DNA of 64,000 bases from positions 650,160 through 714,159 of the forward strand of contig JAUSCS010000006.1 of NCBI GenBank assembly GCA_030651135.1. The letters are read 5' to 3'. Below are positions 33,676 through 48,657 of the stretch, in pieces; position 1 is the stretch's first letter, and each line of letters begins with the position of its first letter. A model generated the notes under the pieces. The model was not told the origin of the DNA. It worked only from the letters and a program-made list of their open reading frames with translations, and did no database searches. The position numbers and the translations under genes are program-made. The DNA comes from Candidatus Woesearchaeota archaeon. Lineage in GTDB: Archaea > Nanobdellota > Nanobdellia > Woesearchaeales > JACPBO01.

Positions 33676-33739
33676 AAAAATGCATAAGGTTTTTAAATGA
33701 AAACAAACAACACATTAAAACAGAGGGGTGAAATTAAAA

Positions 33740-34450
33740 ATGGCAGCAATAAAACATAAAACTAAGTTAAAGGAAACAATAAACAAATTGAGTATTTGGC
33801 TGATAGTTGTTATCGCTTTACTTGTTGTTTTTAATCAATGGCAGATATCGGGCATAGCATCGAGATTTGCAGCAACAGGCATTTCGACAACATCAAGCTC
33901 TACAACGTCTGGCAGCACAGCAGTAAGTTCATCAAATCTTCAAAGTTCTGTTATTCCGACAGGAGTTCCGAGAATTTACGGAGCAGAGTTTGGCTTAAGC
34001 TATGATGATATTTCTTCGAATGATGCAAGAAAGACACAGGCAGCAATAAATAAGATGGGGGTTTATGATAAGTCAATCACACTGACAGGAGATGATTTGC
34101 AGCGCTATATAGCTGTCGGCATGCAAATAAGCTGTGAATATTGCTGCGGAGCTGAGGCAATTATCTTTAAAAATGGAGCTGCGGCATGCGGTTGCGCCCA
34201 CAGCGGTGCAATGCGCGGATTGGCAAAATACCTGATAAGCAAGCATCCGAATGATTTCACAAACGACGAAATCCTGGAAGAGCTTGGAAAATGGAAAACA
34301 CTGTTCTTCCCAGGCATAATGACTCAGAAAGCTGCGGTATTGCAGTCCAAGGGAATTGAGTTTAATTACATAAACCTTGCTTCAAACAAATACAGGGGAA
34401 TAGAGAAAGGAGCAACATCATCTGGCGGGGCAATGGTGGGAGGCTGTTAA
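33740..34450 (+). CDS. membrane-anchored Ser/Thr-rich protein with CEYCCG/CGCAHS Cys cluster and C-terminal MVGGC
   Basis: SD (GAGGGGTGA) precedes MAAIKHK. TM helix, S/T stalk, ...ISCEYCCGAEAII...AACGCAHSGAMRG..., ending ...GGAMVGGC. Confidence 0.5.
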   Translation: MAAIKHKTKLKETINKLSIWLIVVIALLVVFNQWQISGIASRFAATGISTTSSSTTSGSTAVSSSNLQSSVIPTGVPRIYGAEFGLSYDDISSNDARKTQAAINKMGVYDKSITLTGDDLQRYIAVGMQISCEYCCGAEAIIFKNGAAACGCAHSGAMRGLAKYLISKHPNDFTNDEILEELGKWKTLFFPGIMTQKAAVLQSKGIEFNYINLASNKYRGIEKGATSSGGAMVGGC

Positions 34451-34451
34451 G

Positions 34452-34721
34452 ATGGATAAAAAAATAACAGTAATTGTCGTCCTGCTGTCAGTCATCATGA
34501 TAGTTTCGTTTATTCAGGCATTCCAACTGATGGATATCAAGGCCAAGCTATCTGTAGCAGGTCTTGCAACAGGCGGAAGCGCAGCAAACGGCAAGCTCGA
34601 CACAACAGGATGGACAGAGAACGAAAAAATGAATTATGAAATGCATGGAACCATTCCTGCAAGAATCGGGCAAGGCAGCAGTTCAGGATCTAGTGCATCA
34701 TCAATGGTAGGAGGCTGCTAA
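34452..34721 (+). CDS. small membrane-anchored protein ending in MVGGC (family member 2)
   Basis: MDKKITVIVVLLSVIMIVSFIQAFQL...SSMVGGC. Starts 1 nt after the upstream stop. Confidence 0.5.
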   Translation: MDKKITVIVVLLSVIMIVSFIQAFQLMDIKAKLSVAGLATGGSAANGKLDTTGWTENEKMNYEMHGTIPARIGQGSSSGSSASSMVGGC

Positions 34722-34764: not shown

Positions 34765-34962
34765 ATGGACAAGAACATAATAATAGCGATTGTGTTGGGC
34801 GTTTTATTGCTCGTATCTGTTGTGCAGGCATTTGAGCTGAACACAATAAAAACAAAGCTGAGCAGCGGAACAGTTGCAGTTTCAGGTGCAACTACAACAT
34901 CTTCAAGTGCAGCATCTGCGTCAGCATCAAGCTCATCCGGCGGAATGGTTGGCGGTTGTTAG
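34765..34962 (+). CDS. small membrane-anchored protein ending in MVGGC (family member 3)
   Basis: MDKNIIIAIVLGVLLLVSVVQAFEL...SSSSGGMVGGC. SD AAGGAGGAAA upstream. Confidence 0.5.
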   Translation: MDKNIIIAIVLGVLLLVSVVQAFELNTIKTKLSSGTVAVSGATTTSSSAASASASSSSGGMVGGC

Positions 34963-34971
34963 GAGGTAAAA

Positions 34972-35169
34972 ATGAAAATAAAAATAGCATTGATCTTATT
35001 GTTGGTTATAGGATTGATTTTTGTGGCAGGATGCTCGTCAAGCAGTGATTATGGCAGCGGCAGCGCTCCAAGCGGGCCAGTTGGCGGCGGTTGTGGAGTT
35101 ATAGGGCCGGAAGATACAAATGCAAACAATGCAGTTGAGAAGATTAATTCAGTTAAAGAACTTTTTTAA
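34972..35169 (+). CDS. small lipoprotein-like protein with lipobox-like FVAGC and internal PVGGGCG
   Basis: MKIKIALILLLVIGLIFVAGCSSSS...PVGGGCG...; SD GAGGTAAAA. Confidence 0.45.
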   Translation: MKIKIALILLLVIGLIFVAGCSSSSDYGSGSAPSGPVGGGCGVIGPEDTNANNAVEKINSVKELF

Positions 35170-36493: not shown

Positions 36494-37126
36494 ATGTTTT
36501 ATAATGGCATAATAAGTGCGCTTTATGATTTTGAAATCAGGCTCTTTTTGCTTTTTTTAGGAGGCGAGAAAAGGCTAAGGGAAGCTGCAGCAAATGCTGT
36601 TGATATCGGGCATGCAAAAAACACATTAGATGTTTTTTGCGGCACAGGAACATTGACAAGCCTGATTGCAGAAAAAACCAAAGGCAATGTTTTTGGGGTG
36701 GATCTGTCAGAAAATATGATAAGAAGAGCCAGGAAAAAAACAAGCTCCAAAAACACAAAATACATTGTTGCCGATGCAAAAAATATCCCCTTTGAAGACA
36801 ATTACTTTGATATTGCATTCGAATCCCTGGGCCTGCACGAATTAAAATTCAAAGACAGAAATAAGGCAATAGCAGAGATTTACAGGACATTGAAAAAAGG
36901 AGGCACAGCGGTTTTTGTTGAATATGTGAAGCCAAAAAAACAAACAGTCATATTTTTAATATTGAAGTGCATTGAAACAATAATTGACAGGGAAGCCATT
37001 GACGACTTTTTCAGCAGGGATTTTCAAAGTCATTTGGAATACCATAAGTTTAAAGTTATCAATAAAATTCCTGTGCTGAAAGGTTATGCCAACATATTTG
37101 TGGCTAAAAAATCATATAGCAAATGA
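36494..37126 (+). CDS. class I SAM-dependent methyltransferase (UbiE/Methyltransf_11-like)
   Basis: LDVFCGTGTLTSLIA...GVDLSENMIRRARKK. Confidence 0.6.
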   Translation: MFYNGIISALYDFEIRLFLLFLGGEKRLREAAANAVDIGHAKNTLDVFCGTGTLTSLIAEKTKGNVFGVDLSENMIRRARKKTSSKNTKYIVADAKNIPFEDNYFDIAFESLGLHELKFKDRNKAIAEIYRTLKKGGTAVFVEYVKPKKQTVIFLILKCIETIIDREAIDDFFSRDFQSHLEYHKFKVINKIPVLKGYANIFVAKKSYSK

Positions 37127-37170
37127 CACAAATTTTTATACAATATATGAATGTCATTTGCTTATTACGA

Positions 37171-37204
37171 GCGGACAACTATTTGTATAAAAACTATTGT
37201 CCGC
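37171..37204. promoter_or_regulatory. inverted repeat GCGGACAA-N18-TTGTCCGC enclosing a TATA box (TTTGTATAAAAAC); candidate repressor operator/promoter of the micro-ORF-methyltransferase unit
   Basis: Perfect 8-bp arms at 37171-37178 and 37197-37204. The TATA lies in the loop; SD GAGGTG at 37221; ATG at 37231. Confidence 0.4.
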
Positions 37205-37230
37205 GAGTATAAATGCAGATGAGGTGCAAA

Positions 37231-37260
37231 ATGGGAAAAGGCAAAAAAGGATGCTGCTAG
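37231..37260 (+). CDS. SD-led micro-ORF MGKGKKGCC (9 aa)
   Basis: ATG GGA AAA GGC AAA AAA GGA TGC TGC TAG preceded by GAGGTG. The same peptide is encoded at 42353. Confidence 0.35.
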   Translation: MGKGKKGCC

Positions 37261-37289: not shown

Positions 37290-37904
37290 ATGGAAAAAAA
37301 TGGGTGGGACAGAATATATAAAGAAAACAGCCTGAAAAAAATTCCCTGGCATACTGAACAGCCTGAAAAAAATCTTGTGAAGCTTGTTGAGCAGGGGAAA
37401 ATCAAGCCAGGAGAAGTTCTTGACATGTGCTCGGGAGCAGGGACAAACTCTATTTATCTGGCTTCAAAGGGGTTTAAGGTTACAGGAGTTGACGTATCCC
37501 CTACAGCAGTAAAGATAGCAAAAGAAAGGTGCCTGAGAAAAGGCGTGGCTTGCAATTATCTTATGGGCAAGGTATTGAAATTCAAGACAAACAAAAAATT
37601 TGACTTTATTTTTGACAGAGGATGCTTTCACCATATTCCGGATAAAGACAAGCCAAAATATGTTAAAAGGCTTATTAATGTATTGAAGGGCAATGGCAGG
37701 GTTTACATCCAGTGCTTCAGCGATAAAAATCATTTTGACAAAAGCATTTCAAAGGAGGACATTTTAAGGTATTTTTCAGGCCCTTTTAAAATAGCCCATA
37801 TTAAAGAATCCATTCACACAGAGCCCGGCGGGGGAAAAATATACATGCACAATGTTTTTATGAAGAAAAAGAAAAACTTGGATTTTAATCGATCTCAAAA
37901 ATAA
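37290..37904 (+). CDS. SAM-dependent methyltransferase (TPMT/TehB-like)
   Basis: VLDMCSGAGTNSIYLASKGFKVTGVDVSPTAV. Confidence 0.6.
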   Translation: MEKNGWDRIYKENSLKKIPWHTEQPEKNLVKLVEQGKIKPGEVLDMCSGAGTNSIYLASKGFKVTGVDVSPTAVKIAKERCLRKGVACNYLMGKVLKFKTNKKFDFIFDRGCFHHIPDKDKPKYVKRLINVLKGNGRVYIQCFSDKNHFDKSISKEDILRYFSGPFKIAHIKESIHTEPGGGKIYMHNVFMKKKKNLDFNRSQK

Positions 37905-41539: not shown

Positions 41540-41824
41540 ATGAACAAAGAAGAAGTAATAAAAGTCTGGGGTGAATTCTGTAAAAGCAACGGAACATTTG
41601 AGCTAAACCCAGACAAAAAGCATGTTGAAATTGTTGCTGACGGCATATTATCTAATGAAAAGAAGCATGGATTGAAGTTCTGCCCATGCAGATTGAGAGA
41701 TGGGACATTTGAGAAGGACCTTGAGCTTATATGCCCCTGTAACTTTTTTATTCATGAAACATGGCTGAGGCCTAATCCGGGAATGCAGCCAATGTGCTGG
41801 TGCGGGCTGTTCGTAAAGGCATAA
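41540..41824 (+). CDS. ferredoxin-thioredoxin reductase catalytic-subunit-like protein
   Basis: Spacing ...C...CPC...CPC...CHC/CWC, seen here as FCKSNG...FCPCR...ICPCNFFIHE...CWCGLF. Confidence 0.55.
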   Translation: MNKEEVIKVWGEFCKSNGTFELNPDKKHVEIVADGILSNEKKHGLKFCPCRLRDGTFEKDLELICPCNFFIHETWLRPNPGMQPMCWCGLFVKA

Positions 41825-41844
41825 AAACAGAAACATTTATAAAT

Positions 41845-41868
41845 AACATATGCTTATCTTAACATATG
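41845..41868. promoter_or_regulatory. twin AACATATG elements (each with a self-complementary CATATG core) 16 bp apart, overlapping the arsR start; candidate ArsR operator. A TATA (TTTATAAAT) lies about 25 bp upstream, implying a leaderless transcript
   Basis: AACATATG at 41845-52 and 41861-68; the second copy contains the arsR ATG. Confidence 0.35.
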
Positions 41869-42168
41869 ATTAAAAAAGCATATAAAACATTCTTCGGGAC
41901 GCTGGACAATGAAAGAAGGCTGGAAATAATAAACATATTGAGAAAAGCGCCTAAATGCGTTTCCGAGATATGCAAGATGCTTGATTCCAATCAAACCACT
42001 GTATCGCACAATCTTAAAAGGCTTGAGAGGTGCGGCTTTGTTTTTGTAGAGAGGAAAGGGAAGCACAGGTATTATTCGCTGAATAAAAAAACAATAAAGC
42101 CCCTGATGGATCTTATAGACAAGCACATGCACGAATTTTGCGAGAAAATAGTGGCGGGTGAAAGATAA
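41866..42168 (+). CDS. arsR: ArsR/SmtB-family metalloregulator
   Basis: wHTH ...CVSEICKMLDSNQTTVSHNLKRLERCGFV.... Confidence 0.75.
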   Translation: MIKKAYKTFFGTLDNERRLEIINILRKAPKCVSEICKMLDSNQTTVSHNLKRLERCGFVFVERKGKHRYYSLNKKTIKPLMDLIDKHMHEFCEKIVAGER

Positions 42169-42329
42169 TGGTGGTGGAAGAGGCAAAGGCCGGCAAACCA
42201 TATTATGTTTGTGAAGAATGCAGTTTCGCTTACGAAGGCAAGAAATGGGCTGAAAAATGCCAGAAGTGGTGCAAAGAGCATCACAGCTGCAATACAGGGA
42301 TCGCAAAGCACGCTGTAATGAAATCGTAA
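42168..42329 (+). CDS. 53-aa Cys/His-rich putative metal-binding protein
   Basis: MVVEEAKAGKPYYVCEECSFAYEGKKWAEKCQKWCKEHHSCNTG.... Start overlaps the arsR stop (TAATG). Confidence 0.45.
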   Translation: MVVEEAKAGKPYYVCEECSFAYEGKKWAEKCQKWCKEHHSCNTGIAKHAVMKS

Positions 42330-42352
42330 AACTATTTAAGGAGGTGAAAAAG

Positions 42353-42382
42353 ATGGGGAAAGGAAAGAAGGGGTGCTGCTAA
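42353..42382 (+). CDS. SD-led micro-ORF MGKGKKGCC (9 aa), identical peptide to 37231
   Basis: GGAGGTG sits 8 nt upstream. The stop TAA abuts the ATG of the next gene. Confidence 0.35.
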   Translation: MGKGKKGCC

Positions 42383-42637
42383 ATGAAGAAAATCTCCAGC
42401 AAAAAAAGAACAGCTGAAGAAGGCTGCAAAAGCGTAAAGCACGCAAAGGGCATAACGATGCTGGTGTGTTGCTTGATAGTTATGGTTTTATTAATTGCAG
42501 CTGTATATTTTTTTGGGATTGGCAGGAATTACTCATATTGGCTTATTTTGTTGTTGTGCCCTCTGATGCATTTCTTCATGATGAGAGATATGCATAATAA
42601 ACCTCCCAAAAAGGGAAATGGAGATAAATGTCATTAA
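42383..42637 (+). CDS. small membrane protein with CPLMH motif, as in small heavy-metal-operon membrane proteins
   Basis: MKKISSKKRTAEEGCKS...LLLCPLMHFFMMRDMH...GDKCH. Confidence 0.4.
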   Translation: MKKISSKKRTAEEGCKSVKHAKGITMLVCCLIVMVLLIAAVYFFGIGRNYSYWLILLLCPLMHFFMMRDMHNKPPKKGNGDKCH

Positions 42638-42701
42638 GTGCTAAACATGGAAAAGAAAAAACCATTAATAATTGAAAATCCAAAAGAAAGAGGTGTGAAA
42701 A

Positions 42702-42878
42702 ATGGGTTGGTTTGATAAATATTGCGAGAAATGCGGAATGAAAGTGGATAAGAAGACAGCGCCCCAGCGTTTTGGCAAATATTTTTGCTCAGATGAGCAT
42801 GCAGAAACATATGCAAAAGAGGTAGAAGAAATGAGAAAGAAAATGCCAAAACAGCAAAGCAGTGGCGGTTGTTGCTAG
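42702..42878 (+). CDS. TRASH/YHS-domain metal-binding protein (58 aa) ending in GGCC
   Basis: CEKCGMKVDKKTAPQRFGKYFCSDEH is the TRASH pattern. C-terminus ...QQSSGGCC; SD AAGAGGTG. Confidence 0.55.
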   Translation: MGWFDKYCEKCGMKVDKKTAPQRFGKYFCSDEHAETYAKEVEEMRKKMPKQQSSGGCC

Positions 42879-42879
42879 A

Positions 42880-43431
42880 ATGAGACTAAAAGGAAAAACA
42901 ATGGTGTTGGGTGTGTGTGGTGGAATTGCGGCATATTGGGCTGCAGAGATTATTGGCGTGCTTAAGAATGAAGAGGCAGATGTTTATGTTGTAATGACCG
43001 AGAACGCTGCCAAGTTCATAGCGCCTTTGACACTGCAAACGCTTTCAAAGAATAAAGTAGTTATAGACATGTTTGAGCTTCCTGTAGAATTAGATATCAG
43101 CCATATCACATATGCGAAAAAAGCAGACTTAATGCTGGTTGCTCCAGCAACTGCTAATTTTATCGGAAAAGTTGCGAACGGCATAGCTGATGATATGCTG
43201 ACAGCAACCATAATGGCAACAAAAGCTCCAGTGATCATAGCCCCGGCTATGAATGAAAATATGTGGAATAATAAAATTCTGCAAAAAAATATTGGGATAT
43301 TAAAGCAGGCTGATTTCAAGATCATTAATCCTGAATATGGCAAAATGGCTTGCGGCGGGGAAGGGAAAGGCACTCTTGCCAGCATTGAGAAAATAATGAA
43401 AGAAATTGGAAGATTAAAAGAGGAGAATTGA
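42880..43431 (+). CDS. HFCD-family flavoprotein (CoaC/EpiD-like cysteine decarboxylase), stand-alone
   Basis: MVLGVCGGIAAYWA...VAPATANFIGKVANGIADDMLT. ATG 1 nt after the TRASH stop; the track used a GTG at 42862. Confidence 0.65.
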   Translation: MRLKGKTMVLGVCGGIAAYWAAEIIGVLKNEEADVYVVMTENAAKFIAPLTLQTLSKNKVVIDMFELPVELDISHITYAKKADLMLVAPATANFIGKVANGIADDMLTATIMATKAPVIIAPAMNENMWNNKILQKNIGILKQADFKIINPEYGKMACGGEGKGTLASIEKIMKEIGRLKEEN

Positions 43432-43444
43432 GGAATAGGAGAAA

Positions 43445-44314
43445 ATGAGAAAACTGTTACTGAAAAAAGAAAATTTTTATTTTATAACTGTCTTGATAAT
43501 TGTGGCTGTACTGGGCCTTGCTTTTGGGTCATTCTACAAATTGCATGACAAATTCTGGAGCCATTCTATCTTAACAATGCTTGTTTTTGTCTTCGCGATT
43601 TCGCATGGGATAATAAACAAGGGTACAAAAAATACCTTGACTTTTCTTGCCTTGTCTTTTGCGATAAGTTTCGCTGCAGAATTTATTGGAGTCAATTTTG
43701 GCTATTTTTTCGGGGGCGGATATAGCTATTCAGATTTGCTTGGCCCAAAAATTCTTGGAGTGCCCTTTCTTGTTATTTTGATGTGGGCAGCTTTGATTTA
43801 CGTTGCATACGCATTAAGTGAGCATATTCTTGATTTTAGGATAACCAAGAATATTTCAAAAAAAGATAAATTTTATCTTGCATTTTTCAGTTCGATTGTA
43901 GCGGCATTGGCTGCTGTGGCATGGGATTTTGTTCTTGATCCGCTCGCTGTAACAATGAAATGGTGGACTTGGCAGACCGCAGGAGTTTATTTCGGCATTC
44001 CGGCAAGCAATTTTATCGGATGGCTTATTGTTGTGTTCTTGGCAGTGTTCTTATTTAAGATGCTTTTCGAAAAAGAACACGAAGAAACAGAAACAAGGTA
44101 TGATTATGCTCCGGCCCTGTGCTACTTCTTACTTTATCTTTCCATAATCGGGCTTGCGCTAGAAACAAGGCAGCCAATATTTATTCTAATAGGCTTTATT
44201 ACAATGTTCCCCTTTATCAGCATAATCTTGGTGAGATATTTTACTATGAAAACAAAAGCGCCTCATTTATTCAAGCATAAACATGGGAAAGTGAAAGGAA
44301 GTGAAGATGGCTGA
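43445..44314 (+). CDS. integral membrane protein (7-8 TM), possibly carotenoid-biosynthesis-associated (DUF422-like)
   Basis: Multi-TM; the family resemblance is weak. Confidence 0.4.
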   Translation: MRKLLLKKENFYFITVLIIVAVLGLAFGSFYKLHDKFWSHSILTMLVFVFAISHGIINKGTKNTLTFLALSFAISFAAEFIGVNFGYFFGGGYSYSDLLGPKILGVPFLVILMWAALIYVAYALSEHILDFRITKNISKKDKFYLAFFSSIVAALAAVAWDFVLDPLAVTMKWWTWQTAGVYFGIPASNFIGWLIVVFLAVFLFKMLFEKEHEETETRYDYAPALCYFLLYLSIIGLALETRQPIFILIGFITMFPFISIILVRYFTMKTKAPHLFKHKHGKVKGSEDG

Positions 44315-44355
44315 GAAAAAGAAAAGGAGGCCGTCATTGAAATGGAGGTTAAAAA

Positions 44356-44541
44356 ATGTTTGAAAAATTAAAAAAAGCTACTCCACTTGAACTGCAGATA
44401 TGGGTTTGGAGCGCATTTATTTTTGGCATTGGTTTGGGAGCTCTTGCAACTTTTCTTAAACCATATGCAGTATGGATAACAATAATAAGTTTGATTGTGC
44501 ATCTTTTTATGATGTATAAAATTTATTTGCAAAAGAAATAA
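44356..44541 (+). CDS. small membrane protein
   Basis: 61 aa, two TM helices. Confidence 0.3.
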   Translation: MFEKLKKATPLELQIWVWSAFIFGIGLGALATFLKPYAVWITIISLIVHLFMMYKIYLQKK

Positions 44542-44620
44542 AATGTCGGAATTTTCCACCAGTCTGGTGGTTTAAAGCAAATGTGCTTCAACATTGAGAA
44601 AATGATAAGGAGGTGAAAAA

Positions 44621-44893
44621 ATGGAAAAACTAAATGTAAAAACAACTGCATTGACATTGGCCATTGTAGGCGGAGTACTTTCTCTGGCCTGCGCTGCGAT
44701 TATTGCAATATGGCCTGGTTCATTGAAATACCTCGGCGCAATATTCCACGGCATTGATTTGACAGCAATAGCAAAAACAAGCGTATCTATCGGAAGCGTC
44801 ATACTTGGCCTTATCGAAGTTGTGGTAATCGGCGCAATAGTAGGGGCATTGTTTGCCTGGTTGTATAATTATTTCAATGAAAAAATCAAATAA
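44621..44893 (+). CDS. small membrane protein
   Basis: 90 aa, three TM helices; SD AAGGAGGTG. Confidence 0.4.
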   Translation: MEKLNVKTTALTLAIVGGVLSLACAAIIAIWPGSLKYLGAIFHGIDLTAIAKTSVSIGSVILGLIEVVVIGAIVGALFAWLYNYFNEKIK

Positions 44894-44925
44894 AAGGATT
44901 TTTAAAGAACATAGAGGTGAGAAAA

Positions 44926-45128
44926 TGAGTAGAAAAGTAATAAAGGTGGCGAATGTGCCGCTTGAAATCAAACCGCAGAAGGAATCTGCATGGATCTGCA
45001 TGTGTGGCTTGTCAAAAAACCAGCCTTTCTGCGATGGTTTGCATAAATTATGCAACGGTGAAGAAGAAGGCAAGCTTTACGAATATGATGATGCCGGTCA
45101 TCGTAAGGAAATAAAAAAAGAAGGGTAA
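44926..45128 (+). CDS. CDGSH-type iron-sulfur domain protein
   Basis: Likely start MSRKVIKV after GAGGTGA. CMCGLSKNQPFCDGLH is the C-x-C-x2-S-x3-P-x-CDG-x-H pattern. Confidence 0.6.
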
Positions 45129-45143
45129 AAATCATAATCCTCA

Positions 45144-45629
45144 ATGAATAGAATAAAACAAAGCCTGAATGGAATAAACTGCGTATTAGGCAATTGGGTC
45201 TATTTGATGATTTTTATAGTTTTTACCATGGTCTTTTTATCAATCTACATTTTTGCATGGAACTTTATTTTGCTGTCAAACTTTTATGTAAGAATAGATC
45301 TATGGACGCCATTGAATTTGTTGTTTTTAATAACTATTTCAATTTTATCGGGTATGATTTTGGCATTAAATATTTATGTTCTTAAATCAAACTGGTCTTT
45401 ACATAAAAAAGCCCATGGTTATTTTGCGCTAATACCTGCTTTGTTCACATCAGTCTGCCCAACATGCGCCCCTCTGCTTTTGTCTTTTTCAAGCACGACA
45501 ATCGGCATTGGCATGCTGATATCCGGCTTTAATATTTTTGTTAATGCATTTATTGTTCTGTTACTTGGTTTGATCTTGATAAACATATCATCAAATTTAA
45601 ACAGTTGCAAAATAAAGGCTAAAAAATGA
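45144..45629 (+). CDS. integral membrane protein with intramembrane CPTC motif; stop overlaps the copA start
   Basis: [14 protein letters not shown]; 4 TM helices. Confidence 0.4.
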
Positions 45630-48052
45630 AAACAACAATCAAGATAACAGGAATGCACTGCGCAAGCTGCGCAAATACAATAGAGAAAGCCTTAAAGAGA
45701 GCAAAAGGCGTGATCAATACAAATGTGAATTTTGCAACAGAAAAAGCAACTGTTGAATTCGATGAAAATAAAACAAATCAGGAAGGCGTTGAAAAAACAA
45801 TAGAAAAAACAGGCTATAAAATAATAAAGGAAGAAAAAGAAAGCAAAACAGGTGAAAAAGGTATTTCCGAGATAAAATTAAAAATCATCGGCATGGACAA
45901 TCCGCATTGTGTAGCCACAGTAAGCGGCGCATTAAGCGCAATAAAAGGCATTGTCTCAAAAGAGCTTTTAGTTAACCAGAAAGCGGCAATAAAGTATGAT
46001 CCCGTTCTGACAAGCATCAATGAAATCAAGAAAGCAATAAAAAATTCAGGCTACGAGCCAATTGAAGAAACTGCATCAGTTGACAAGGAGAAGGAAGCAA
46101 GGCAGAAAGAGATCAGAAGGCTGCAAATAGAGGTTTTTCTCGGGTTTTTATTGAGCATCCCTATTTTCATACTTTCTTTTCCTGAATGGTTCAAGATAAT
46201 TGTGCCTTATGCAAATTACGTTTTGTTTATATTGACAACTCCTGTACAGCTGGCAATCGGAAGAAGATTCTATGCCGGAATGTGGATCGCTTTAAAAAAC
46301 AAAAGCGCAAACATGGACACTTTGATTGCAGTAGGCACAAGCGCAGCCTATATTTACAGCGCTCTTGTGACTTTTATTCCAAATACCTTCAAAGGAGCTG
46401 TTTATTATGACACAGCAGCCATTATTATAACTTTCATTCTTTTAGGCAAACTGCTGGAAGCAGTGATGAAAGGCAAAACATCAGAAGCAATAAAAAAGCT
46501 GATGGGCCTGCAGGCTAAGACAGCAATGGTCGTAAGGAACGGCAAAGAAATTGGGATCAACATTGATGATGTTGCTGTCGGCGATATTGTTGTTATCAGG
46601 CCAGGTGAAAAAATCCCGGTTGACGGCGTTGTAATTGAAGGCCATTCAGCAGTTGACGAATCAATGATCTCCGGGGAAAGCATTCCTGTTGAAAAGAAAA
46701 TCGGCGACAATGTGATTGGAGCAACAATAAACAAGAACGGAGCTTTGAAGTTCAAGGCAACTAAAGTTGGAAAAGATACTGTTTTAGCTCAGATCATAAA
46801 ATTAGTTGAGGAAGCCCAAGGCAGCAAAGCTCCAATACAAAGAGTGGCTGACAAAGTAAGCAGCTATTTTGTTCCTGCTGTAATAATAATTGCAGTTGCA
46901 GCTTTCATTATTTGGCTATTAGCTGGCCAGAGTTTTGTATTTTCATTGAGCATATTCATTGCAGTTTTGATTATTGCATGCCCATGCGCACTTGGCCTGG
47001 CAACTCCGACTGCAATAATGGTTGGATCTGGAAAAGGAGCTGAAAACGGCATCTTAATAAAATCAGGCGAAGCACTTGAAACAGCCCATAAACTGACAAC
47101 AATTGTCTTTGACAAGACAGGAACATTGACAAAAGGAAAGCCCGAAGTTACGAAGATCGTTTCTGTTTCGAATTTATCTGAGAGGGAAATCATAAGATTC
47201 GCAGGCATTGCAGAGAAAAATTCAGAGCATCCTCTTGCAGAAGCAATTGTGAAGAAATGCGACGAACTGAAAATAAAGCTTACCGGCGCCTCATCTTTTA
47301 TTGCAGTTCCTGGAAAAGGCGTTAAAGCAAAGTACAAAGATGAAGAAATCATAATAGGCAACAGAAAAATGATGGAAAATTTTCCGTTAAAGCTTATAGA
47401 TCCGAAAATCGTTGAGCTTGAGAATTTGGGCAATACTGTTATGCTCATTGCGCTAAGGAACAGGGTTATTGGCATGGTTGCAGTTGCAGATACATTGAAA
47501 GAATATTCCAAAGAAGCAGTTGAGCAGCTTCATAAGATGAAAAAGGAAGTCATCATGATAACTGGCGACAACAAAAGAACGGCAGAAGCAATTGCAAAGC
47601 AGATCGGCATTGGCAAAGTTTTAGCAGAAGTGCTGCCTGAAGACAAGGAAAAAGAAGTAAAGAAGCTGCAGCATGCTGGAGAAGTTGTTGCATTTGTCGG
47701 AGATGGCATAAATGATGCGCCTGCTCTTGCGCAGGCAGATATAGGCATAGCAATTGGCGCAGGAACAGATGTTGCTTTGGAAACAGGGAATATTGTTTTG
47801 ATCAAAAACGATTTAAGAGATGTTGTTACTGCCATTGACCTAAGCGCTTATACAATAAGGAAGATAAGGCAGAATCTGTTTTGGGCATTTTTTTATAATA
47901 CTGCCGGCATTCCGATTGCAGCAGGAATTTTATATCCTTTCACGGGATTTTTGCTGAATCCGATAATAGCTGCTGCGGCAATGGCATTCAGCAGCGTGAG
48001 TGTTGTCGGGAATTCATTGTTTATGAGATTGTATAAGGCAAAGATAAAATGA
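45626..48052 (+). CDS. copA: Cu(I)-translocating P1B-type ATPase
   Basis: Two HMA domains (GMHCASC and an HMA-like domain), CPC motif [28 protein letters not shown]. Confidence 0.9.
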
Positions 48053-48657
48053 AGCTAAAGAAAAAATATTTGAACTATGGCTTTTTTGTTTTTATCATTC
48101 TGGTAGTTTTGTTTTTTTATTTAAAAAATGTTAATAAGCCTTATTACCCTGATATTTACACGCCAAGGCCTGTTTTGGGCAATGAAAGCGCCAGGATAAC
48201 AATAACAGAGTTTTCTGATCTTCAATGCCCTGCATGCAAGGCAGCACATCCGACTGTCAACAGGATAATGGAAGAATTCAAAAATGATGTAAAGCTGGAA
48301 TACATGCATTTTCCGCTGCCAATGCACCAGTATGCGTTTAAAGCAGCAGAAGCAGCAGAATGCGCGAATGATCAGGGCAAATTCTGGGAATTTGTTGACA
48401 AAGTGCACGCAAGCTCTGATGATCCGACGCCAAGAAAATTGAAAAACTATGCAAAAGAATTAAGCTTAGACATGAAAAACTTCAGCAACTGCCTTGATTC
48501 ATCAGCAAAAGCATCTTATGTTGCAAGAGATGTAAGGGAAGCCAAGAATATGGGTGTTGATGCAACTCCGACATTTTTCATTAACGGAGAAAAGCTGAGC
48601 AATTGGAGATATGACATTTTTAAGCAGAAGATAATGGAAGAAATAGCTAAAAAATAG
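48049..48657 (+). CDS. membrane-anchored DsbA-like thiol:disulfide oxidoreductase
   Basis: TM helix; [14 protein letters not shown]; overlaps the copA stop. Confidence 0.65.

Follow-up and report, generated by a model that had tools for sequence, protein, structure and literature searches.

The only chemistry established for the close HFCD relatives of the protein described here is oxidative decarboxylation of a terminal cysteine (PMC11350588; PMC9604783). In phosphopantothenoylcysteine decarboxylase, CoaC (the Dfp N-domain, AtHAL3a, human PPCDC; EC 4.1.1.36), the substrate is 4'-phosphopantothenoylcysteine (PPC), and a redox-active clamp cysteine reduces the enethiol intermediate (PMC9604783), whereas the LanD-type peptidyl-cysteine decarboxylases (EpiD, MrsD, CypD, TvaF, SpaF) act on a polypeptide C-terminus inside RiPP clusters with dehydratases or cyclases, and contribute to the making of antibiotics. 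Copper handling in archaea involves a cop cluster comprising a CopT/CopR regulator, a CopM TRASH chaperone and a CopA ATPase, and in bacteria copper-binding ribosomal peptides such as bufferins (MNIO/DUF692 systems) and methanobactins carry enzymatically altered cysteines that tune copper binding under copper stress. Removal of the carboxylate of a C-terminal cysteine has not been described for metal chaperones.

We examined a stretch of 64,000 nucleotides (the window) from a tiny DPANN archaeon, Candidatus Woesearchaeota archaeon (GCA_030651135.1, contig JAUSCS010000006.1), in which a sequence-only reading had proposed an ArsR-controlled operon whose Cys-terminated peptides feed a stand-alone EpiD/CoaC-like flavoprotein. 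The observation held: every ORF listed in that reading is present at or near the coordinates given there, with the ATG of the flavoprotein gene following the TAG of the preceding ORF by 1 nt. Three details required correction. The flavoprotein has 183 rather than 184 residues, the assignment of a TRASH domain to the 58-aa protein rests on its C-x2-C...C-x3-H motif only, and the co-directional cluster does not stop at 44314 but extends as 13 same-strand genes from 41866 to 48657, through CopA to DsbA (Table). The proposed interpretation was partly supported, as detailed below; the metal-responsive context holds, with ArsR and CopA in the cluster.

Table. Positions of the features in the window. 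L numbers denote related metagenome loci that were fetched for comparison.
Position	Strand	Feature	Supporting observations
33728-34450	 	MVGGC-terminated ORF	
34452-34721	 	MVGGC-terminated ORF	
34765-34962	 	MVGGC-terminated ORF	
37231-37260	+	Micro-ORF MGKGKKGCC, copy 1	Lies between two SAM methyltransferase genes; imperfect 22-nt palindrome upstream at 37166-37209
41829-41893	+	arsR promoter/operator (operator role inferred)	AAACATTTATAAATA TATA/BRE-like box about 21-35 nt before the ATG; 9-nt direct repeat TAACATATG at 41844-41852 and 41860-41868; ATATGCTT/AAGCATAT inverted repeat bracketing the start codon
41866-42168	+	ArsR/SmtB-family metalloregulator, 100 aa	Winged-helix Pfam HTH_5 (PF01022) 55.7 bits (cut-off 22); NCBIfam NF033788 70.4 bits (cut-off 55)
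42168-42329	+	Cys/His protein, 53 aa; relatives belong to DUF7128	Start overlaps the arsR stop; homologue at L161 77-235 carries PF23447 DUF7128 and lies next to CopA; also found by tblastn in L091 and L095
42353-42382	+	Micro-ORF MGKGKKGCC, copy 2	Preceded by an AAGGAGGTG ribosome-binding site
42383-42637	+	DUF2933 membrane protein (CPLMH motif), 84 aa	Pfam PF11666 29.7 bits (cut-off 21); also found in L088 and L091
42702-42878	+	Small metal-binding protein ending SSGGCC, 58 aa (proposed substrate)	C8-x2-C11...C29-x3-H33 treble-clef-like domain, helix at 31-47, flexible tail
42880-43431	+	Stand-alone CoaC-like HFCD flavoprotein, Trp-type	GGIAAYW, His75, PAMNENMW (Asn125), MAC158GG; PF02441 113 bits
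43445-44314	+	Polytopic membrane protein, Caroten_synth (CruF-like) family, 289 aa	PF04240 138.9 bits, E = 2.9e-40; among the fetched related loci found next to the pair only in this window, hence not a conserved partner
44356-45629	+	Four small genes: 61-aa TM protein (44356-44541), DUF5676 (44621-44893), CDGSH iron-sulfur protein (44925-45128), 161-aa membrane protein with a CPTC motif (45144-45629)	
45626-48052	+	CopA-type heavy-metal P-type ATPase with HMA domains, 808 aa	Pfam HMA, E1-E2_ATPase and Hydrolase
48049-48657	+	DsbA/thioredoxin-like protein, 202 aa, last gene of the tight cluster	DsbA-like genes recur in the loci of the 58-aa protein's family

The distance of the TATA/BRE-like box from the arsR start makes a leaderless transcript likely, and the second copy of the direct repeat contains the arsR ATG. 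Within the window AACATATG occurs 8 times against 2.96 expected, a count reached in none of 100 shuffles, and an AAACATTTA(T/A)A(T/A)A box together with ACATATG(T) palindromes recurs before arsR in L002, L161, L004 and L091. The micro-ORF is more than a chance occurrence, as its two copies encode an identical peptide with 5 synonymous and 0 non-synonymous differences, and copy 1 has its own GAGGTG and unrelated flanks. By contrast, we found no evidence tying the three MVGGC proteins, which had been offered as a further source of Gly-Gly-Cys termini, to the enzyme; these proteins begin with a transmembrane or signal segment.

We next characterized the 58-aa protein preceding the flavoprotein. 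In a family alignment C8, C11, C29, H33 and C58 are invariant, and the AF2 model (mean pLDDT 81.6) places tail residues 53-58 below 50, such that the tail is predicted to be disordered and should be accessible. No Pfam YHS/TRASH model matched any of 26 family members, a weak Metallothio_Pro match was obtained in 18 of 26, and the best fold matches, which were non-significant, were SmtA-type metallothioneins. In 40 of 71 metagenome loci of the family a CopA-type ATPase was present in the DNA fetched.

By both sequence and predicted fold, the flavoprotein is CoaC-like rather than EpiD-like. It scored 212.1 bits against NCBIfam coaBC_dfp (cut-off 219.7; the model includes CoaB), 184.8 bits against coaC_strep (cut-off 261.4) and 42.9 bits against the CypD model NF033753 (cut-off 215), thus falling below both CoaC equivalog cut-offs although it almost reaches the first with half of the model. 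It is 52-60% identical to Clostridia CoaBC N-domains, and a Foldseek search with its AF2 model (pLDDT 90.9) returned 6TGV and 1MVN as top hits (TM 0.86). The catalytic His75, Asn125 and Cys158 are invariant in the alignments. However, the lysine of the GGIAAYK motif, found in 80 of 80 control CoaC sequences and in 140 of 150 diverse representatives (in nine of the other ten the motif search did not match, and the tenth read Y), is Trp (W20) in the window and in 9 of 9 paired enzymes, with S26G, L78Y, L156M and D160G co-varying with it. This position aligns with Lys34 of AtHAL3a and with the lysine of human PPCDC and M. smegmatis CoaBC, while the peptide decarboxylase SpaF has Ala there. Lys34 reportedly contributes to phosphate specificity (Hernandez-Acosta et al. 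2002). Enzymes carrying Trp or Gln at this position form one clade that excludes every Lys-type sequence (NJ bootstrap 88/100).

To examine whether the association with the Cys-Cys-terminated ORF is accidental, we compared the neighbourhoods of Trp-type and true CoaC genes. In all 12 distinct loci with a Trp-type HFCD and readable upstream DNA (the window, L002, L004, L087, L089, L090, L091, L092, L095, L159, L161 and L170; 52-100% HFCD identity to the window; members from Woesearchaeota and Aenigmatarchaeota), a GGCC-ending homologue lies 0-20 nt upstream. In contrast, in 79 loci with a true CoaC, fused to CoaB or with CoaB immediately downstream, this arrangement was never found, and 0 of 464 neighbouring same-strand ORFs end in CC or CCx (Fisher p = 3e-15, not corrected for phylogeny; the 12 loci are related, so the value overstates their independence). 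The GGCC codons vary synonymously (GGC/GGA/GGT/GGG, TGT/TGC) while the residues never change, indicating protein-level selection on the tail. No CoaB was detected by tblastn in the 64-kb window or in any Trp-type locus, whereas in all 15 stand-alone Lys-type loci examined CoaB lies immediately downstream.

Cys-terminated proteins also accompany other stand-alone HFCD genes. Gln-type enzymes sit in arsenic-resistance or Fe-S-assembly clusters behind an FmdB zinc ribbon ending ...G(A/P/S)GCC and two YlbF-like proteins ending ...GGCC/TGCC and ...ASC/SSCC/STC/GSC, such that up to three consecutive proteins end in Cys. A third, more distant stand-alone HFCD, which lacks the clamp Cys, lies near GGCC peptides and CopA or DsbD in Nitrosopumilales. 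Conversely, the GGCC/GCCC-tailed family is much wider than the enzyme and mostly CopA-linked: 59 of its 71 metagenome loci show no HFCD in the DNA fetched, and L093 has a GGGGCC tail with no HFCD within 6 kb. The tail thus works without the enzyme in most lineages, and is first of all a metal-binding feature.

Combined, these results lead us to favour, at a probability of about 0.55, a reading in which the pair consists of a small copper-handling protein and a dedicated CoaC-derived enzyme that acts on the protein's own C-terminal cysteine instead of on PPC. In this model, ArsR would release the leaderless operon when metal rises, and the 58-aa protein would be made together with the flavoprotein, whose FMN would oxidize the last Cys to a thioaldehyde, with His75 as base and Asn125 holding the carboxylate, and with loss of CO2. 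Because Cys158 is retained, the enethiol would then be reduced back, leaving -Gly-Gly-Cys-NH-CH2-CH2-SH, a carboxylate-free, pantetheine-like dithiol arm that would bind Cu(I) and serve CopA; the 9-residue peptide MGKGKKGCC may be a second substrate. Gene order, the conserved pairing, the clade structure, the residue pattern and the disorder of the tail in the model are direct observations of this analysis, whereas the identity of the substrate, the chemistry (including any activity on PPC), the cysteamine product and the Cu(I) role are inferred from sequence alone. Gene neighbourhood shows a functional link, but not which protein is the substrate. It is about as likely as not that the proposal extends to a previously unrecognized protein modification system, in which Trp- or Gln-type enzymes would convert the C-terminal cysteine of small metal(loid)-handling proteins into a C-terminal cysteamine, acting on TRASH-like ...GGCC proteins in DPANN archaeal copper operons, on FmdB- and YlbF-like ...GCC proteins in arsenic operons, and possibly on MGKGKKGCC, to yield ribosomally encoded, pantetheine-like dithiol arms for Cu(I) or As(III).

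Ordinary coenzyme A biosynthesis, which the sequence-only reading had named as the alternative, is unlikely but not excluded. In this view the gene would be a housekeeping CoaC split from a CoaB encoded elsewhere, its position in the cop operon having no mechanistic meaning. The strongest family matches (including 104 bits to PDB 6TGV, CoaBC), the high identity to genuine CoaBC N-domains and the intact catalytic residues leave PPC as a possible substrate, and split coaC genes exist in Bacillota. However, this view leaves unexplained the pairing in 12 of 12 loci within metal operons, and it is further weakened by the absence of an adjacent CoaB in Trp-type loci, the replacement of the lysine together with four co-varying positions, and scores below both equivalog cut-offs; CoA pathways are also reported as rarely complete in Woesearchaeota (PMC8421398). 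A similarly doubtful possibility is a small-molecule thiol decarboxylase acting on a non-phosphorylated cysteine conjugate, for example pantothenoylcysteine or a gamma-glutamyl- or acyl-cysteine, to make a cysteamine-type low-molecular-weight thiol that buffers Cu(I) or As(III), in which case the enzyme would be co-expressed with metal-binding proteins without acting on them. Loss of the lysine fits loss of phosphate recognition, exchange of Lys34 in AtHAL3a is reported to have allowed unphosphorylated pantothenoylcysteine to be used, the clamp and Cys158 remain CoaC-like, and both subclades sit in metal(loid) detoxification operons; yet no ligase that would make such a conjugate is conserved next to the gene, and the one strictly conserved neighbour is a protein ending in Cys-Cys.

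A non-decarboxylating role, in which the flavoprotein keeps the vicinal Cys-Cys tail reduced, oxidizes it, or acts Hal3-like as a regulatory binding partner of the small protein or CopA, also appears improbable. Thiol-redox genes (DsbA, DsbD, glutaredoxin-like and FeThRed_B-like) do cluster around all three HFCD types, and yeast Hal3 is a moonlighting regulator (PMC9604783), but the complete decarboxylase catalytic set (His, PXMNXXMW Asn, clamp Cys) is invariant across the clade, which is not expected of a pure binding protein, and no disulfide-reductase activity is known for close HFCD relatives. Least likely is the LanD-type step of the sequence-only reading, in which the terminal Cys becomes an aminoenethiol that then forms an aminovinyl-cysteine-type crosslink. 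The adjacent ORFs end in Cys-Cys, as does the epidermin precursor, and fold and sequence similarity to SpaF, MrsD and EpiD are clear. However, the retained Cys158, absent from SpaF and from EpiD, would by analogy with CoaC reduce the enethiol (PMC9604783), making a reduced cysteamine end more likely than an aminovinyl thiol. Moreover, no dehydratase, cyclase, protease or exporter was seen in any of the 12 loci, the Pfam families of the neighbours having been listed for the window, L002, L004, L159 and L161, and the Ser residues before GGCC are not conserved (QQGGGCC, RGGGGCC, DGEECC).

Compared with described systems, the flavoprotein shares with CoaC the HFCD flavodoxin-like fold, the active-site residues and the expected decarboxylation followed by reduction (PMC9604783), but differs in being stand-alone, in carrying Trp in place of the conserved lysine, in forming a separate clade, and in being preceded, in the loci examined, by a protein ending Gly-Gly-Cys-Cys inside metal-resistance operons. 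With the LanD-type enzymes it shares the fold, a gene position next to a ribosomal product ending in Cys, the lack of a lysine at the GGIAAYK position (as seen in SpaF) and, if the proposal is correct, a polypeptide C-terminus as substrate; sequence similarity is much lower (64-90 bits in PDB), and the partner here is a folded 58-aa metal-binding protein in a cop operon. As in the archaeal cop cluster, a metal-responsive regulator, a small Cys-rich TRASH-like protein and a CopA P-type ATPase lie in one locus (PMC3595675; PMC7830388), but the regulator is ArsR-type and the small protein is not recognized by the YHS/TRASH models. This small protein also carries a Gly-Gly-Cys-Cys tail and is coupled to a flavoprotein, neither of which has been described as part of the cop cluster. 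Bufferins, methanobactins and other copper-binding ribosomal peptides modified at cysteine offer a functional analogy only, as they are bacterial, secreted or periplasmic products of a different enzyme family and chemistry (thiooxazole or oxazolone-thioamide), and none is known to use an HFCD.

To examine the gene context in full, we first inventoried the ORFs of the window, which comes from a DPANN metagenome-assembled genome (Candidatus Woesearchaeota; the same DNA is also present in a Logan assembly). Thirteen ORFs lie on the + strand with gaps of -4 to 79 nt, in the order arsR, a 53-aa Cys/His protein whose homologue in the related locus L161 carries Pfam DUF7128, the micro-ORF MGKGKKGCC, a DUF2933 membrane protein, a 58-aa protein ending SSGGCC, a 183-aa HFCD flavoprotein that starts 1 nt after the preceding stop, a Caroten_synth-family membrane protein, a 61-aa TM protein, DUF5676, a CDGSH protein, a 161-aa membrane protein, CopA and a DsbA-like protein. 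Just upstream, on the same strand, lie a cupredoxin, a rubredoxin-like protein and a ferredoxin-thioredoxin-reductase-like protein. The last of these, a 94-aa FeThRed_B-like protein rich in CPC motifs, which matches the NCBIfam 'FtrB family double-selenoprotein' model below its cut-off (41.9 bits against 160), sits directly before the arsR promoter. Every element listed in the sequence-only reading is thus present, and what it described is the front half of a copper/thiol island. The arsR start is preceded by a TATA/BRE-like AAACATTTATAAATA about 21-35 nt upstream. It is embedded in a twin TAACATATG repeat and an ATATGCTT/AAGCATAT inverted repeat, and the same box and ACATATG palindromes recur before arsR in four related loci.

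The micro-ORF is real: it occurs twice in the window, and the two copies differ at five synonymous sites and at no non-synonymous site, each with its own GAGGTG ribosome-binding site and with unrelated flanks. The copy outside the cluster lies between a UbiE-type and a TPMT/TehB-type methyltransferase gene, and is preceded by an imperfect 22-nt palindrome (GCGGACAA...TTGTCCGC core) spanning a TATAAAAA box. An analogous Lys-rich ORF, ...KKKGCGGCC, occurs in the related locus L159. Elsewhere in the window, three consecutive ORFs share an N-terminal transmembrane segment, a Ser/Thr-rich linker and the identical C-terminus MVGGC, the first also having a CEYCCG...ACGCAHS Cys cluster, while a fourth ORF is a lipobox lipoprotein with an internal VGGGC; none of these has a Pfam match. 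The coordinates of these and other features are collected in the table below.

Coordinates of features in the window and in related loci (L numbers denote fetched loci)
Location	Coordinates	Strand	Feature
window	41866-48657	+	thirteen-ORF cluster, arsR to DsbA-like gene
window	41540-41824		94-aa FeThRed_B-like protein
window	42353-42382	+	micro-ORF MGKGKKGCC, copy within the cluster
window	37231-37260		micro-ORF MGKGKKGCC, second copy
window	37166-37209		region upstream of the second copy, with the imperfect 22-nt palindrome
window	36494-37126		UbiE-type methyltransferase gene
window	37290-37904		TPMT/TehB-type methyltransferase gene
window	33728-34450		MVGGC-terminated ORF, first, with the Cys cluster
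window	34452-34721		MVGGC-terminated ORF, second
window	34765-34962		MVGGC-terminated ORF, third
window	34972-35169		lipobox lipoprotein with internal VGGGC
L158	217-2096		CoaC-like flavoprotein and Cys-terminated module
L162	3891-5627		CoaC-like flavoprotein and Cys-terminated module
L165	3691-5612		CoaC-like flavoprotein and Cys-terminated module
L169	3-676		CoaC-like flavoprotein and Cys-terminated module
L121	1061-1591	-	third stand-alone HFCD type
L166	5001-5564		third stand-alone HFCD type
L116	3101-3391	-	third stand-alone HFCD type
L168	5001-5552		third stand-alone HFCD type
L002	6856-8281		recurring genes beside the peptide-HFCD pair
L087	1150-2566		recurring genes beside the peptide-HFCD pair
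L091	6738-9022		recurring genes beside the peptide-HFCD pair
L004	2654-3328		recurring genes beside the peptide-HFCD pair
L092	1351-2004 and 10517-11260		recurring genes beside the peptide-HFCD pair
L002	6573-6767		second, paralogous small-protein type
L087	776-967		second, paralogous small-protein type
L159	5494-5748		second, paralogous small-protein type
L094	6160-6177		TAA stop before the two Cys codons
L096	6160-6177		TAA stop before the two Cys codons

We next asked what the flavoprotein is by sequence and predicted fold. It matches the CoaC half of the CoaBC model at 212 bits and the streptococcal CoaC model at 185 bits, compared with 43 bits for the RiPP decarboxylase model CypD. Its best solved relatives are M. 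smegmatis CoaBC (104 bits) and the peptide decarboxylase SpaF (90 bits), with human PPCDC, AtHAL3a, TvaF, EpiD and MrsD scoring 63-76 bits, and its AlphaFold model (pLDDT 90.9) superposes on CoaBC and on AtHAL3a bound to its reaction intermediate at TM 0.86. The matches retrieved in a scan of species-representative genomes were all Bacillota CoaBC or CoaC, with no DPANN genome among them, the nearest relatives there being Clostridia CoaBC N-domains at 52-60% identity. The flavoprotein keeps His75, Asn125 of PAMNENMW and the clamp Cys158, corresponding to the residues that in AtHAL3a carry out oxidation and decarboxylation (His90, Asn142) and the reductive second half-reaction (Cys175) (PMC9604783). 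On this evidence alone one would call it CoaC. Indeed, at least six stand-alone proteins of about 180-200 aa from this clade (database proteins P0004, P0008, P0024, P0042, P0045 and P0061) are labelled 'bifunctional CoaBC' or 'phosphopantothenoylcysteine decarboxylase/phosphopantothenate--cysteine ligase' by NCBI or JGI, although they have no CoaB domain, and this label feeds spurious partial CoA pathways into metabolic reconstructions of DPANN archaea.

To examine whether the enzyme is nevertheless distinct from ordinary CoaC, we compared 9 enzymes that follow a GGCC-ending ORF with 80 Bacillota CoaC sequences obtained from the genome scan. Most of the 80 are fused to CoaB, and in all 15 stand-alone loci examined CoaB lies immediately downstream. 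The Lys of GGIAAYK is K in 80 of 80 controls but W in 9 of 9 paired enzymes, and S26G, L78Y, L156M and D160G co-vary with it, as does Y129W. Among the 120 closest database proteins the motifs sort cleanly into three types: W-type (GGIAAYW / ..MW / G.MACGG), Q-type (GGIAAYQ / PAMNENMW / GPMACGG, about 200 aa) and K-type (GGIAAYK / ..MY / G.LACG[YDT]). A search of a representative library returned only K-type CoaBC at 55% identity or less, apart from one truncated 62% match, such that the W-type clade was not represented there; among 150 diverse 50%-identity representatives, 140 have K. The position aligns with Lys34 of AtHAL3a and with the Lys of human PPCDC and mycobacterial CoaBC, whereas SpaF has Ala there. 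Exchange of Lys34 is reported to let AtHAL3a accept unphosphorylated pantothenoylcysteine (Hernandez-Acosta et al., J Biol Chem 2002), which would make Lys34 the phosphate-specificity residue. A neighbour-joining tree of 166 sequences, computed with a numpy implementation, places W- and Q-types together in one clade that excludes every K-type sequence (bootstrap 88/100).

The 58-aa protein belongs to a tight family with invariant C8, C11, C29, H33 and a terminal Cys, nearly always in the context ...GGCC. In every locus with a W-type enzyme and readable upstream DNA (12 of 12, enzyme identity 52-100%, one cluster member coming from an Aenigmatarchaeota MAG), a GGCC-ending homologue ends 0-20 nt before the start of the enzyme, while in 79 K-type loci none of 464 same-strand neighbours ends in CC or CCx (Fisher p = 3e-15, uncorrected for shared ancestry). 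We considered whether GGCC might be conserved only as DNA, as the Shine-Dalgarno site of the HFCD gene, and rejected this possibility, as the last four codons vary synonymously while GGCC never changes, and as the tail is conserved in loci that have no HFCD. The AlphaFold model of the small protein (pLDDT 81.6) shows short zinc-ribbon-like strands, a helix at 31-47 and a disordered tail. Pfam and fold searches gave no significant family for it, the only similarities, both weak, being to SmtA-type bacterial metallothioneins. A second, paralogous small-protein type (CxxC...FC(D/C)xxH...), ending in SSCCCG, SGCCCS or SCRCC, lies just after the HFCD in L002 and L087 and just before the GGCC peptide gene in L159.

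The tail does not, however, need the enzyme. A metagenome scan with the peptide family returned 71 loci, in which the CxxCG...RFGKYFCSxEHA core with a GGCC, GCCC or GGCCC end is widespread, and 40 of the 71 carry a CopA-type ATPase. Only 8 of these loci have the W-type enzyme and 4 have a more distant HFCD nearby, and in L093 a GGGGCC tail occurs with no HFCD within 6 kb. The Cys-Cys end is therefore first of all a feature of a CopA-associated small metal-binding protein, to which the enzyme is a lineage-specific addition. In L094 and L096, close relatives with no HFCD within 6 kb, a TAA stop sits immediately before the two Cys codons (...CGG-stop-CC), which looks like recent loss of the Cys-Cys end and, although anecdotal, fits the two genes being lost together; reading the L094 stop as selenocysteine was rejected because the codon is TAA.

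Other genes beside the pair are less consistent. Caroten_synth was rejected as a conserved third partner, since among the fetched loci it accompanies the pair only in this window. PEMT/ICMT-like membrane methyltransferase genes (6 of 12 loci) and Lgt-like genes (4 of 12) recur beside the pair, and in L091 the Lgt-like gene overlaps the HFCD stop. Lycopene-cyclase-like proteins occur in L091 and L004, and the Caroten_synth protein occupies the equivalent place in the window. These genes could hint at lipid or carboxyl processing of a C-terminal Cys, or could simply be common metal-island passengers.

Parallel associations were found for related enzymes. Q-type enzymes (L158, L162-164 and L165; and the W-bearing intermediate P0052 in L169) follow a conserved module consisting of an FmdB zinc-ribbon protein ending ...G(A/P/S)GCC and two YlbF-like proteins, one ending ...GGCC or TGCC and the other ...ASC, SSCC, STC or GSC, with a glutaredoxin-like gene sometimes present. 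L162-164 also carry ArsR, ArsD, ArsA, ArsC and Acr3, L165 carries ArsA together with cysteine desulfurase and NifU, L169 has an ArsC-like gene directly after the enzyme, and L157 has cysteine desulfurase and NifU. A third stand-alone HFCD type keeps the His and the PSMNPNMW motif but lacks the clamp Cys and the Lys. It is common in Nitrosopumilales, where it lies near ...RRGGCC peptides, CopA, DsbD, YHS and glutaredoxin genes: in Nitrosotenuis aquarius it ends a DsbD-YHS-glutaredoxin operon that is divergent from a ...RRGGCC peptide gene, and in L121 it follows CopA, while the copy in L097/L116 is truncated. In Chitinophaga it is preceded by a 164-aa protein ending ...VVACAC and followed by a similar 195-aa protein ending ...IIFCAA. 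We found no paper connecting HFCD or PPC decarboxylases with copper or arsenic resistance.

Taken together, the comparisons establish a conserved and very tightly linked gene pair, a distinct enzyme clade that retains the catalytic set but has lost the conserved Lys, the recurrence of Cys-terminated proteins beside the related Q-type enzymes and a more distant HFCD type, and a metal(loid) operon context. From these we infer, with a probability of about 0.55, that the terminal Cys of the small protein is the substrate and that, because Cys158 is retained, the product is a reduced C-terminal cysteamine rather than an aminovinyl thiol. The result would be a carboxylate-free dithiol arm, chemically like the beta-alanyl-cysteamine end of pantetheine, that could bind Cu(I).

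Ordinary CoA synthesis, although unlikely, remains possible, since the enzyme is so CoaC-like and our analysis did not extend to the rest of the genome; CoA pathways are reported as rarely complete in Woesearchaeota (PMC8421398). A small-molecule cysteamine-thiol pathway is the least unlikely of the alternatives, though still doubtful, and a redox or regulatory partner role is slightly less likely than ordinary CoA synthesis. A true LanD-type crosslink is the least likely of these alternatives, and an aminovinyl-cysteine ring in particular was rejected as unlikely given that there is no dehydratase among the neighbouring genes, that the Ser residues are not conserved and that Cys158 is retained.

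The interpretation offered by the sequence-only reading, in which the HFCD protein modifies C-terminal Cys of the neighbouring peptides, is therefore supported in part. The enzyme-peptide link is now backed by comparative genomics and by a change at the putative specificity residue, but the likely product is not the proposed aminovinyl thiol, the CC tail is not specific to the enzyme, and the suggested contribution of the MVGGC proteins is unsupported. By its sequence the enzyme is a CoaC derivative rather than an EpiD/MrsD-type one, differing from the CoaC sequences compared here in the loss of the conserved Lys and in its pairing with a Cys-Cys-terminated protein. If it does act on the protein tail, this would add a new post-translational modification, a C-terminal cysteamine, to copper and arsenic homeostasis, and would show how a primary-metabolism enzyme was recruited by changing one specificity residue. 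It would also be, as far as we know, the first HFCD cysteine decarboxylase working on a folded housekeeping or stress protein rather than on CoA precursors or antibiotic peptides.
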